A stretch of 63,853 bases of DNA, the filler included, from Octopus bimaculoides (taxonomy: Eukaryota): assembly GCF_001194135.2 (NCBI RefSeq). It is 6 parts of 6 records of this genome, joined end to end, with 100 filler letters (N's around TTAATTAATTAA, not from the genome) between each part and the next. Parts side by side here need not be neighbours in the genome. Positions count along the whole stretch, not along the records: positions 1 to 17,866 come from NC_068984.1; positions 17,967 to 31,875 come from NC_068997.1; positions 31,976 to 41,098 come from NC_068982.1; positions 41,199 to 51,558 come from NC_068990.1; 2 more parts are not named here. The stretch is one strand, 5' to 3'. This document shows positions 11,780 to 49,635 of the stretch, one piece after another (position 1 is the first letter of the stretch; each line of letters begins with the position of its first letter). The notes beneath the pieces are model-generated. The model worked only from the letters and a program-made list of their open reading frames with translations. It was not told the DNA's origin and did no database searches. The translations under genes and the position numbers were made by a program.

Positions 11780-11995
11780 ATATATACATATACATTATTA
11801 TGATTGACCGTTGACTGAACACTATTCAATTTTTTTTCTCCGTGTTTTTCTCCTTGTCTCCGTATACTTTCTGTTGAAGAGCGTAGCTCGAAACGTCAAA
11901 GACTTTCCGTATTCCTGAGCGTCATACTAATACATCCCTTTGTTATTTACACCACCTGTCCTCGTCTGTTGTTGTTTTTTCGTACATTCTCCCAT
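11780..11995 (+). mobile_element. Non-coding interspersed repeat, Penelope-like terminal fragment with hammerhead-like motif (11867-11901)
   Basis: Shares GAAACGT(C/A) and CC(T/C)GAGCGTC..TAATAC motifs with 15655-15842 (-) and 37440-37660 (-). The PLE link is inferred from the hammerhead-like motif only. Confidence 0.55.
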
Positions 11996-12111
11996 NNNNN
12001 NNNNNNNNNNNNNNNNNNNNNNNNNNNNNNNNNNNNNNNNNNNNNNNNNNNNNNNNNNNNNNNNNNNNNNNNNNNNNNNNNNNNNNNNNNNNNNNNNNNN
12101 NNNNNNNNNNN

Positions 12112-12164
12112 ATTTGCTTCACCATATACCGAAGTTCAGAACTTCGGTATATGGTGAAGCAAAT
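12112..12164. repeat. Perfect 26-bp inverted repeat with 1-nt spacer, abutting an N gap
   Basis: ATTTGCTTCACCATATACCGAAGTTC-A-GAACTTCGGTATATGGTGAAGCAAAT. Confidence 0.95.
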
Positions 12165-13231
12165 ATTTGCTGATCCCTTAATTATGTTTATAAATATATA
12201 TGAGCTTTTAAATAAGTTCTCCACCAATAATGGTGCTTTCATACCAATGGACTTGGTAAAAATTATTAATTGTTAATTGATTTATTAATTAATAAATTGA
12301 TAATCCTTTACCCTTTTAATTTGTATATATATATATATATATATGTGTGTGTGTGTGTGTGTGTGTGTGTGTATAATTGTACACAATAAAGTCAGTAAAA
12401 TTAGCATATTTAAAAGGTAGGTACCTCGGAATTAATTATTCAGGGTACTCATCTTTGGGTAAAGCGATAGTGAAGTTAATGTCATATTCAATGCAGTAAG
12501 AATTTTAAAAATTTAATTAAAAAATAATTATGGAGGGAAGAAAAGACAACAATAGTGCAATAACTAATATGAATAATTATAATTTATTTAGATTCTTGAT
12601 ATTCGCTGCATTAAATATGTTTGTACTAACTTAAATATTAATCTTCCTCGCGAATAGCGTCCCTGAGTCGTGGCGAATTTTTTTTCCGTACACCACAAAC
12701 ATGGTGGATGATAGAAGTCAATGGCTTTTCGGTTGTGAGCTGAGGTGATAACTAATCATCGAGTCAACGTCTGCTTGTTGACATTAAAATGCTTTAGTGA
12801 GTGAAAGTACATGAAACAATGAATGACGAAGTCTCTATGCGTGAGTGTGCGTGTGCGTGTGCGTGTGTGTGTGTGTGTGTGTGTGTGTGTGTGTGTTTGT
12901 GTGTGTTTAGAGGGAGTGGTGGTCGCGATTCAAACAAAGAGGTCACATTCCACTCACAGACTTACTGACGACACATTCAATACTGCACCATGCCTATGCC
13001 TACACAACATATGTATATATTGTGTGTGTGTGTGTGTGTGTGTGNNNNNNNNNNCACAACATATGTATATATTGTGTGTGTGTGTGTGTGTGTGTGTGTG
13101 TGTGTGAGTGTGTGTGAGTGTGTGTGAGTTACGGAACAAAATTTACTTAAGGTCCAAAGCTAGGTCCAACCCATTATGTTCCAAGCGTTTTCATTGTCTC
13201 CCATCATCAATAGATATATATATATATATAC

Positions 13232-13637
13232 TCTTTACTCTTTTACTTGTTTCAGTCTTTTGACTGTGGCCATGCTGGAGCACCGCCTTTAGTCGAGCAA
13301 ATCGACCCCAGGACTTATTCTTTACAAGCCTAGTACTTATTCTATCGGTCTCTTTTGCCGAACCGCTAAGTTACGGGGACATAAACACACCAACATCGGT
13401 TGTCAAGCGATGTTGGGCGGACAAACACAGACACACAAACACATACACACATACATATATATATACATATATACGGCGGGCTTCTTTCAGTTTCCGTCTA
13501 CCAAATCCACTCATAAGGCTTTGGTCGGCCTGAGGCTATAGTAGAAGACACTTGCCCAAGGTGCCACGCAGTGGGACTGAACCCGGGACCATGTGGTTGG
13601 TAAGCAAGCTACTTACCACACAGCCACTCCTGCGCCT
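13232..13637 (-). mobile_element. tRNA-derived SINE, family A, apparently full length
   Basis: Minus-strand head AGGCGCAGGAGTGGCTGTGTGGTAAG...CCCGGGTTCAGTCCC (A/B boxes); collinear with 318-735. Confidence 0.92.
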
Positions 13638-14101
13638 CTCTCTCTCTCTTTCTTTCTGCGTGACTCTTTCTCTCTCCCACACATATGCACATATGTAAAT
13701 CAGTATATATTTATATAATATAGTCAGATGAAATCAAATATGATCTGCTACTAGTTATTATTGTAAACCAATACTTTCTGTTTCAAGTTCAAGCCCCCGG
13801 CAACTATACCATTAATACAACTCTAGGGTCTTACCCTGGCGTGTGTCCTGATAGGACAAAAATCAATAGCTGTCTACGTAAATAGGTGGACTGAATAACA
13901 ACTCAACGGTCATCCATCAAATCTACAAACAAATCGAGCGTGAGATCGGCATTACTGACATCCTTAGTAACCCTGTACTCGACCTTCTGTCTGTCTGTGT
14001 CTGTCTGTGTCCTTCTGTCTCTGTCTCTCTCTCTCTTTCTCTTTCTCTTTCTCTCTCTCCCTTAATACTTTTAACTATAACCCTTTCTCTTTTCGACGTT
14101 T

Positions 14102-14149
14102 GTCGTGCTGAAGAGTCCAGAAACTGAACGAAATAGTACTATCAACGGC
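14102..14149 (+). ncRNA. Candidate type I hammerhead ribozyme with palindromic stem III
   Basis: GTCGTG-CTGAAGA-GTCCAG-AAA-CTGAAC-GAA-ATAGTACTAT-C-AACGGC. Core intact; stem II 5/6 pairs; stem III a perfect 10-nt palindrome; AUC cleavage triplet; stem I 5/6 pairs. Confidence 0.65.
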
Positions 14150-14674
14150 TACCATAGATTTTAAGGACTTTATCTCATAAAGGTATAAAAGAATTATATG
14201 AAAATATATGTATGGTCTTTTGCCTAATTGGTAATGATTTCTCAACATGAAAAATAACAAGTGATCCTCTCTCTTTAAGTAACAATTCTCAGTAATTCTA
14301 CCACGCCTTCTCTTATCATGTCTTATCTTCCTAATCTTTTTGAACTGACATATATTGATAAACACTGTTTTCTACTTAGCTACATATCAGTGTCTTCTAA
14401 TGAAAACAACTTAAATTCGCTCCGCGGGTTTCTTAAAACTTGTGGTAGTCTATACACATCCAATATTATCAGACTTCATTAGATAATATGCATGTTTATA
14501 GCATTAGTATTATCCGAAACGGCTGTAAAGAAAGACCTCATTACATCATATAATTATATATCCAATTTTCAACGTGAATGTATTTTTACACCGACTATTA
14601 TTTGTCTGTCTCTTTTCTGCTTATACATACATACATACATACGTACATACATACATATATACATACACACATAT

Positions 14675-48006: not shown

Positions 48007-48115
48007 TTTATTCAATACGACGATCGTTTCGACCCATCCTGCAACTGTCCGTTATGGATAGGATTTCGTGCATTTAATTGTGCTGCATCAATCAATGTAG
48101 TGACACATCAGGTAC
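48007..48115 (-). ncRNA. Partial hammerhead motif (3' half intact)
   Basis: Minus strand GTAC-CTGATGT...GGGTC-GAA-ACGATCGT-C-GTAT-TG-AATAAA. Confidence 0.35.
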
Positions 48116-48509
48116 ATGCATAAAGAAGGGAATATCCCACTAGATATATTGAGATGTCCTAAGCCTGATATTTTGTTTAAGACTGGCTATAGTTGTCCGT
48201 AAGTATTTAACATAAAATTAAAATCGTACAATCATAAAGTACAGAAAGTACAACATATCAAAGAAAGACTACATTTAGTTTAACGGGGAGGGGTGTGCAC
48301 TCGCGGTAATGAACACACACTCAGACAGTGTATGTGCGTGTGTGTATGTGTCTGTACGCCTGTGTGAGTATGTATTCAGGGCCGTAAGTGTACAGTTTAT
48401 ATATACAAATTTTCTATAGAATTTAGAGTCAATATTGAAAGTCATGACGTTTCATATACAAATACGTCCTTGTAAACAATGCAATCGAAGATGCAAAAAT
48501 AGGTAAAAA

Positions 48510-48555
48510 GTGTGTATGCTTATTTCAGGAGTTATTGTTCCTTCTTCAGCACCAC
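48510..48555 (-). ncRNA. Candidate minimal type I hammerhead ribozyme
   Basis: Minus strand GTGGTG-CTGAAGA-AGGA-ACAATAAC-TCCT-GAA-AT-AAGC-AT-A-CACAC. Confidence 0.4.
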
Positions 48556-48959
48556 ATCCGGCCCATTAACCATCCACGAATACCTTCCTTAAATACCCGC
48601 TTGGCTTAATGGTGTAACACTGTTGGATAGACCAATTGACCAGCAACTAATATATACATACCAGTTGTCTGGAAAGTGTTTAATGGGTAGCTTGGCCTAT
48701 CCAATCAATATATTACACGAGGAAGTCCATCATGTATATATATGCATGTGTATGTGTGTATGTGCTTTTAATTAAGTTTGTCCCTATCACCGCTTGACAA
48801 CTTGTGTTGGTTTGTTTACAATACTATTACTTAGCGGTTCGGCAAAACGGGTGATCGAGCAAATACCAGCTTTGAAAAGAGATAAATTCTGGGATAAATT
48901 TCATTGATTAAACCTTTCAATGAGGTGCCCACGCTTAGCCGTTGTCTAGTCTGAGTGAA

Positions 48960-49175
48960 GAAAGTGAAATGGCGGTTTCAAATTGTGGCACAAGGACAAT
49001 AGTTTCGGGGAATATTTATTACATCGACTTTTGTGCTCAACTGGTACTCATTTTATCGACTCCGAAAGCTGAAATGCAAAGTCGACCTTGGCAGAATTTG
49101 AACACAGAACGTAAAAACGGATGTCACTATGTGTTTTGCCCGGTGTACTAACGCTTCTGCCAGCTCGCTGCCTTA
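48960..49175 (-). mobile_element. SINE family B, diverged
   Basis: Ends CTGCCAGCTCGCTGCCTT on +, the reverse complement of the family B head. Confidence 0.8.
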
Positions 49176-49499
49176 GAAGTAAATAATAAAAGGTAAAATA
49201 TCATTATATAACATATTTTGAATCCCGGAAATAAATAATTAACAGTCTTGGCATCCAGTGATAAGCAAAATGTAATTAAACTGCTTGTGACGTAGGATGT
49301 ATGTGTATCACACATTCACTGAACTTCTTATGAATATACCCGCAGGGCTCGGCTTATGGCTGAGCTATGGACATGGGTATGTTCATTAGTTTGTATCCGT
49401 GTTGTGCAAAGCCGATTTCAAAACTTTCAACGTGTCATCTATTACTGGAACATTCCGGAACATATAACTGTTAAACGGGAGTAATACAGTTCTATATTT

Positions 49500-49635
49500 A
49501 AGAGATGTGGAATTATGTACATTATTTAAAATTGACGGATATTTGTCCTCATCTTGCTTGTTGTTAACGTAACGTTTCTGCTGATATACCCTCCCGTCTT
49601 CATCAGGTGTCTTGGGGAAATTTTGAACCTGGGTT
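49500..49635 (-). mobile_element. Penelope-like terminal fragment with degenerate hammerhead (49567-49610)
   Basis: Minus strand ACAC-CTGATGA-A-GACGGGAGGGTATATCAGCA-GAAACGTT; core intact, stems eroded. Confidence 0.4.

Follow-up and report, generated by a model that had tools for sequence, protein, structure and literature searches.

What are the eight hammerhead-like motifs in one stretch of the Octopus bimaculoides genome the remains of, and do they belong together? The stretch (hereafter the window) is 63,853 nucleotides long, filler included, and is made up of six joined stretches; the genome itself is 2.34 Gb in size and has at least 30 large contigs. The motifs are spread over four of these stretches (C4, C17, C2 and C10), and therefore their shared window is meaningless, with the exception of a trio on C10. 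The original prediction saw in them a possible Penelope/retrozyme-type system of non-autonomous, ribozyme-bearing repeats. Our analysis makes it probable that seven of the motifs are decayed hammerheads in the end-repeats of five lineages of Penelope-like elements (PLEs), dispersed over the genome in copies that number thousands, and that one of these lineages, family E, has a tRNA-derived head which is likely a promoter for RNA polymerase III (Pol III). Hammerheads in PLE repeats and in retrozymes are already known (PMC4209133; PMC7229834; PMC6765202); the tRNA-headed autonomous family of the Poseidon type is a variant of this known kind.

The window motifs and their families in the genome

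The motifs were found where they had been described, at 11867 and 14102 on the plus strand and at 15746, 20352, 37555, 48007, 48510 and 49567 on the minus strand, and all eight have GAAA(C) and most of a CUGAnGA-like core. The palindromic stem III is also present, with ACGT at 11867, 15746, 37555 and 49567, ATAGTACTAT at 14102 and ACGATCGT at 48007; the whole set comprises ACGT, ATAGTACTAT, ACGATCGT and ATATGCATAT. AATAAA is confirmed on the minus strand, both at 20355 and at 48012. No reverse transcriptase (RT) or GIY-YIG endonuclease (EN) of a PLE had been noticed nearby, and tblastn detects no PLE protein in the window.

Individual window copies are no better than chance, and the support derives from their families. 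Our first descriptor gave eight loose matches in the window against 4.7 ± 1.9 in 40 shuffles and no strict match against 0.15, while a minimal-hammerhead descriptor gave none against 0.02 in the control. The folding z-scores of the single motifs range from +0.75 to -1.8, and no hammerhead family is found among the best 150 of 304 Rfam matches in the window. Single copies that do not exceed shuffles are what one would expect if the motifs were chance look-alikes in AT-rich repeat DNA, and for the 20352 motif this is still plausible.

When the genome was searched with each motif, seven of them had 40 or more matches. The first-look candidate matches number 1407 for 11867, 44 for 14102, 1782 for 15746, 1323 for 37555, 860 for 48007, 997 for 48510 and 1751 for 49567. 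The 20352 motif (20350..20414, minus strand), which had been counted with the others, matches only itself genome-wide by both DNA search and pattern. It consists of CTGATGA, a stem II of GTTG/CAAC and GAAAC, followed by AATAAA, and neither its stem I nor a stem III is convincing. The 'about six families' proposed before are better described as one singleton and five lineages: A, which falls into three subfamilies, and B, C, D and E. For six of the seven motifs with families, the family majority recovers base pairs or core letters that are lost in the window copy: both mismatched pairs at 14102, all five at 49567, and the palindrome and the cleavage triplet at 48510. This repair is not circular because only the damaged copies were available to the original prediction. 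The copy at 15746 agrees with its own family (96-100%), in which stem I is only about 1 bp.

Genome-wide, the pattern CTGANGAAG-N6-22-CGAAACGT has 8,700 matches against 10 for the reversed pattern. A comparison with shuffled controls had been named as a check, and its outcome is divided: the window copies are similar to shuffles, whereas the genome-wide pattern is far above its control. Family E dominates the first 100 of the 8,700 matches listed. One repeat family could alone yield such an excess, and therefore the structural case rests on stems that recur in unrelated families and on the core pair 3-8. The family majorities have stems I and II of 5 + 4 bp (A1), 4 + 4 bp (A3), 6 + 4 bp (B), 4 + 3 bp (C), 3 + 5 bp (D) and 5 + 5 bp (E); subfamily A2, with about 1 bp, and the 20352 motif do not have a proper stem I. 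The core CUGAnGA...GAAA...NUH is full in the majorities of B, D and E. One-letter variants are found in the others, namely A6U in A1 and A3, U4C in A2 and A9U in most copies of C, of which 3 in 35 are canonical. Core pair 3-8 is C-G in most families and U-A in one further family; family F, with 16 readable loci, has A-U in eight of them and G-C in the other eight.

Three observations speak against chance look-alikes, which we regard as very improbable: unrelated families share a core flanked by complementary stems I and II, the 3-8 pair varies between C-G, A-U, G-C and U-A, and the pLTR (pseudo-long terminal repeat) position agrees with published PLE anatomy. For the seven motifs chance look-alikes are refuted by the 8,700 matches against 10, by 5,797 genome matches against 0 in the control for the exact core of A1 and A3 (A6U variant), and by the majorities that mend the mismatches of the window. 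Judged from sequence, seven of the eight motifs are worn hammerhead copies in interspersed repeat families, with a type I layout in the family majorities. Two observations weigh against this, since A2 is unable to form stem I, and the cores of A1 and A3 (A6U) and of C (A9U) are altered.

We also looked at a spaced sample of 60 evenly placed 10-kb pieces (528,007 non-N bases), in which there are 10 A-type and 3 E loci and no matches for families B, C and D. L223, L278 and one more match in this sample belong to a repeat with a U3-A8 core (TTGAAAA), a stem II of GTTG/CAAC and an AATT palindrome.

Minimal type I hammerheads are known in metazoan PLE pLTRs (Cervera and de la Pena 2014, PMC4209133). 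The available text of that paper does not treat Octopus, and it makes no mention of A6U (A1/A3), of U4C (A2), of the A9U that C combines with a long insertion in stem II, or of the A3-U8 and G3-C8 pairs of F. A9U is found in functional natural hammerheads (PMC10085705). The words 'Octopus' and 'cephalopod' are absent from the available text of PMC7229834, and a paper on Octopus vulgaris repeats reports Penelope-like families, with 'hammerhead' absent from its available text (PMC13282606). Among the publications listed by a full-text literature search, covering few subscription papers and neither Repbase nor supplements, none deals with octopus PLE hammerheads and none with an autonomous PLE whose promoter derives from a tRNA; the families may sit in supplements of PMC4209133, PMC8557442 and PMC13282606, outside this scope. 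The hammerheads first noticed are known biology in another animal, and they help to annotate tens of thousands of anonymous repeats.

Coding elements of families A and E

Family A repeats are about 200 nt long and end in (TA)n. The window contains a solo pLTR of subfamily A1 at 11793..11995 (plus strand, target (TA)n), with its hammerhead at 11867-11902 and a cut predicted after 11897, and an older solo pLTR of subfamily A3 (80-86%) at 37464..37659 (minus strand), in which 4 nt of the core are gone. A1 and A3 have the order stem I, CTGTTGA (A6U), an extra A, GAGC/GCTC as stem II and GAAACGTH; in the A1 majority stem I is 5 bp and the palindrome is ACGT. An earlier register with TTGAAGA as the core was dropped, and CTGTTGA followed by A yields full stems I and II. 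The A1 tail has 5,724 genome matches, and at the 3' end nearly all A1 loci shown have (TA)n or an AT microsatellite of a related kind.

Starting from a fragment of a PLE RT located upstream of A1 in locus L009, we reached 25 loci with an RT. Among 20 that were extended, six (L287, L292, L293, L295, L296 and L299) have an A-type pLTR on the same strand, at a distance of 2.1-3.1 kb downstream of the RT, with many of these links spanning assembly gaps. L258 has the order RT thumb, CxxC linker, EN remnant and A3 pLTR. A CX2-5CxxC linker between RT and EN marks Neptune and Nematis, and a microsatellite insertion is described for the Neptune clade (PMC8557442). Family A has both features in common with Neptune-clade PLEs, an assignment made by motif rather than by tree, and because of assembly gaps a full intact copy was not recovered. 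From this gene order, 11867 and 37555 are recognisable as end-repeat stumps of an autonomous Neptune-type PLE. The repeat at 15655..15842 (minus strand; A2) is A-like through shared motifs, ends in (TA)n and belongs to the youngest family (96-100%). Its core at 15776-15750 has U4C, a compensated stem II (GGGC/GCCC) and nearly no stem I, and A2 is probably related to A1 and A3.

A GIY-YIG endonuclease in L020 was considered as the partner of family A and rejected, as this EN belongs to family F, which has a different end-repeat in other loci. L020 (G000 C3:859207-862409) is a chimera, in which the endonuclease and 3' region of family F are joined to an A1 end-repeat. Family F (L153-L171, outside the window) is a Neptune-type PLE, and its A3-U8 and G3-C8 pairs are natural compensatory swaps of C3-G8. 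Such natural core variants, among them A6U with its 5,797 exact copies and the family F pairs, are substrates for hammerhead chemistry.

The motif at 49567 had been listed as an eroded eighth. It is eroded, and it is in fact a decayed copy of the most canonical family. Family E is represented here by a 5'-truncated pLTR with tail, of Poseidon type, at 49481..49636 (minus strand), and its hammerhead (49611-49566) has five pair-breaking changes. The tRNA-derived head, which in the family is located upstream, is missing from this copy.

The family E unit is 2,646 nt long, and its majority has one open reading frame (ORF) of 835 codons. The order is the stop of the EN, tRNA head, (AAT)n, ATG, the hammerhead within codons ~11-24, tail and remaining ORF; the start is 109 nt past the head, and the predicted cut is in codon 24. 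The ORF consists of an RT (RVT_1, E=5.8e-7, above the Pfam cut-off) together with a C-terminal GIY-YIG without a CxxC linker. The EN was identified by motif: Pfam misses it in L143, and PF01541 is present in homologues in 1 of 20 rows. In longer copies about 30 nt separate the GIY-YIG gene from the tRNA-like segment. Of 20 EN-bearing loci, 19 retain the head behind the EN at least in part, and 17 retain nearly all of it. L377 is a partial tandem of pLTR, tail, ORF and pLTR in which the tail continues into the ORF. On this architecture, 49567 is identified as the truncated end of an autonomous Poseidon-type PLE whose RT and GIY-YIG are found elsewhere in the genome.

A search for autonomous partners had been suggested, and it was successful for A1/A3 and for E, with RT and GIY-YIG. 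Protein queries from E, F and A did not reveal a coding partner of A2, B, C or D, which weighs against placing all of the repeats with PLEs.

Family E resembles PAc, the Poseidon element of Anolis carolinensis (Frangieh et al. 2024, PMC11167929). Both have an RT followed by a C-terminal GIY-YIG without CxxC, a partial tandem of pLTR, ORF and pLTR, a hammerhead that overlaps the ORF start and two 3' ends around a tail of 30-40 nt (30-36 nt in E), and in both RNA-seq ends are absent at the cut site. In PAc, reverse transcription begins within the RNA at two sites that flank the tail; the hammerhead needs protein in order to cut, and insertion does not depend on it (PMC11167929). Family E differs by its tRNA A/B-box head, the (AAT)n ahead of the start codon and the absence of TTTT from the sense strand; such a head is not described for PAc in the available text.

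The E tail is abundant, with 10,121 genome matches for a 22-mer, compared with 3,552 for a 21-mer of the head. In most loci inspected the inverted upstream copies stop 26-36 nt short, and in L088, L093, L096 and L100 the inverted pairs are flanked as a whole by 12-13-bp duplications. We considered whether the ribozyme cut defines the insert ends and rejected this: of 30 tail-anchored E copies, three have no core, a single one begins close to the cut, and 18 extend to the head region. We also rejected the possibility that the short E copies are a separate SINE (short interspersed element) using PLE enzymes, as the head sits in the coding element (19 of 20 EN loci, and L377). They have the A/B-box head of tRNA-derived SINEs; non-autonomy apart from a helper was not found.

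If family E and the other lineages follow the mechanism described for PAc (PMC11167929), the PLE endonuclease would nick AT-rich DNA, and reverse transcription would initiate within the RNA at the two tail-bounding sites and proceed to the RNA 5' end, often folding back. Short solo or mirror-image end-repeats would be left behind. To cut, the hammerheads of E would have to be dimers or be assisted by protein; their cut would fall within the ORF, and the insert ends would not be set by them.

The tRNA-derived head and the transcription of family E

The A and B boxes of the family E head are intact and match their consensus, and the acceptor and T stems are broken. Compared with host tRNAs, the head is identical at 49 of 73 positions at best, with a score of 64 against a maximum of 49 in 200 shuffles. 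The best of 20 distinct tRNAs are Ala-TGC (49/73) and Arg-TCT (47/73), and they do not fix a parent isotype.

The 5' ends of E copies pile up at the head. We mapped the first 30 unselected, head-bearing E copies on C1, two rows of which are the arms of one insertion. Relative to the head, 19 of the 30 ends are found at -15..+5, three inside the head, six at -16..-100 (two of which resemble -7 on inspection) and two further up. The sense strand of the 2,646-nt unit furthermore has 13 runs of TTT and no TTTT, where means of 2.9 (P=0.028) and 5.3 (P=0.003) are obtained from synonymous shuffles and from a third-position model, respectively. Individual E copies contain 7 TTTT runs in 21 kb, whereas related PLE coding sequences with a comparable share of T contain 93 in 25 kb. 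Among the control ORFs of the same genome, that of F has 4 such runs in 1,358 nt and that of A has 1 in 1,169 nt. After a length filter and de-duplication, 80 metagenome loci gave 36 related PLE coding stretches, which contain 217 in 44.7 kb. Among 27 related metagenome PLEs, none has a tRNA-like head behind the EN.

We lean towards initiation by Pol III at the E head, for which the boxes and the 5' ends argue. A Pol III supply of the E coding RNA is a more tentative suggestion. As tentative is the full proposal that E is an autonomous coding retrotransposon transcribed by Pol III from end to end, from a captured tRNA promoter in its own repeat. Pol III would start at the tRNA head of the upstream repeat and transcribe the T4-free 2.65-kb unit, so that short E copies would resemble SINEs.

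The possibility that everything seen is ordinary PLE debris has to be taken seriously, and we give it somewhat less credence than these proposals. The E head would then be passive, transcription would be by Pol II, and a hairpin would stall the reverse transcriptase or make it fold back. A hairpin of 5 bp with a 2-nt loop is indeed native to the 5' start of the head, and for 15 of the 30 head-bearing copies an inverted counterpart is found within 120 nt; the pile-up of 5' ends could thus come from fold-back alone. Palindromes at pLTR 5' ends have been published (PMC3846280). The cloverleaf is broken, the Rfam tRNA match is found in 0 of 2 loci, and relaxed ARAGORN calls the head in 3 of 14. 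Protein is normally made via capped mRNA; Pol III RNA is uncapped, and the translation of an 835-codon ORF is left without an explanation. Ribozyme cleavage can favour cap-independent translation (PMC13725137), whereas the predicted E cut lies within the ORF. Two of the 36 related PLE stretches are also TTTT-free, and GGGG, of which only about 1 is expected, is absent from the E unit too.

The RNA reads weigh in the same direction. In three raw RNA runs from one study, of which about 6% each was mapped on one E copy, E reads are equal in both orientations, and 67-72% of them continue into unrelated flanks. No pile-up of read ends is seen at the cut site or at the head in these three ordinary RNA-seq runs. 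This is the pattern expected of passive copies within host transcripts, from a library type that is unsuited to testing cleavage.

Several points speak against a passive head. The A and B boxes are kept although the acceptor and T stems are broken, roughly one in two of the copies that start at the head lacks an inverted partner, and the whole unit is TTTT-free, unlike the control ORFs of F and A and most relatives. The head is moreover located where PLE promoters lie (PMC6765202). The Schistosoma repeat SM-alpha also has a Pol III-type promoter followed by a hammerhead (PMC6765202), the promoter in E being a predicted one. SM-alpha is non-coding, whereas the promoter-like head of E is built into an autonomous RT/EN element. 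No RNA run is among the sequencing runs listed as matches; contigs from four DNA-sized runs labelled as four other organisms contain both head and hammerhead, and transcript starts are not readable there.

Should Pol III transcription of E be true, a 2.65-kb unit would have been purged of terminators and would spawn its own SINE-like short copies, and a coding element would be translated from uncapped RNA. Pol III normally makes short non-coding RNAs, and a coding RNA of 2.5 kb would inform the study of uncapped-RNA translation. It would also be a direct route from a PLE to a hammerhead-bearing SINE, and show how a Penelope element can give rise to SINE-like ribozyme repeats of the SM-alpha kind.

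Families B, C and D and further features of the window

The copy of family B in the window (14093..14309, plus strand) is the 3' portion of an old unit of about 585 nt, and has a canonical type I hammerhead at 14102-14149 with a cut predicted after 14143. That of family D (48394..48640, minus strand) is a portion of a unit of about 380 nt, and its hammerhead (48552-48512) has lost the U of the cleavage triplet. In 3 of 20 loci B is continued, on its upstream side, by its own 3' end, and in 3 of 15 loci the same holds for D, in both cases without an ORF; head-to-head pairs of D are also found. The tandem units that had been expected at 150-400 bp thus exist for D, and the B period is outside this range. 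PLE-protein matches are found near none of the 20 B loci and near 1 of the 15 D loci, there on the opposite strand. Copies of both families are about 80% identical and therefore old, and a direct tandem with two intact hammerheads was not seen among the B and D loci viewed.

In their sequence B and D fit decayed non-LTR (non-long terminal repeat) retrozymes, and they would borrow PLE enzymes in trans. Non-LTR retrozymes are reported to derive from PLEs (bioRxiv 10.64898/2026.07.22.740005), and retrozyme circles have been demonstrated in mussel, coral and axolotl (PMC7229834). What metazoan non-LTR retrozymes and B/D have in common is a tandem or permuted unit that has no ORF and one type I hammerhead, is PLE-derived and is mostly left as a monomer (PMC7229834; bioRxiv 10.64898/2026.07.22.740005). 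The B unit exceeds the retrozyme units of about 300 nt described in the available text, and B and D are known here from DNA only.

The original prediction went further, with every motif marking a non-autonomous, retrozyme-like element that self-cleaves and forms small circular RNAs. The ORF-less B and D loci beyond unit length, their well-formed majority hammerheads and the retrozyme circles of other animals agree with it. However, A1/A3 and E terminate coding elements, the window copies are all single and mostly damaged, and B and D are old. No back-joint at the cut site is found among the E joints listed, so the circles find no support there, in ordinary RNA-seq from an ill-suited library. 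We consider a retrozyme origin of all motifs unlikely. Penelope/retrozyme-type repeats remain the right class and B and D are ORF-less tandems as foreseen; A1/A3 and E are not non-autonomous, and there is no single system.

The copy of family C (47822..48373, minus strand) is the 3' portion of a PLE-type end that is long and non-coding and shows head-to-head inversions. The hammerhead of this copy (48115-48015) has A9U and a stem II insertion of about 65 nt, with a cut predicted after 48019. C is found in inverted pairs, and its non-coding upstream part is common to copies for at least 0.4 kb; a walk of about 0.9 kb upstream did not find a coding partner. In C, an extended stem I has AATAAA as its 3' strand, and a polyadenylation signal is therefore not a required reading.

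The minus-strand trio described as lying within 1.6 kb is clustered, and it is not one family. At C10:41.39 Mb (window 47822-49636, minus strand) three different hammerhead families lie within 1.8 kb, D adjoining C. This clustering of C, D and E is tighter than the sampled densities would suggest, and perhaps reflects a common AT-rich target preference.

Two remnants of another repeat family are found at 30700-30890 and 23488-23680 (both minus strand), the former with GTGACGA...GAAA and a possible distant pairing partner. A perfect 454-bp tandem duplication at 39836-40733 is possibly an assembly artefact at a gap. Fragments that resemble ORFs of long interspersed elements (LINEs) of the Dong/R4 type are located at 14884-15507 (plus strand; zf-RVT, E=9e-5) and at 58585-58848 (minus strand). 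The window further contains a broken gag/protease fragment of an LTR element at 7192-8228 (plus strand; DUF7083, aspartyl protease) and a Helitron helicase-like fragment at 3244-3519 (plus strand; PF14214, E=2e-15).

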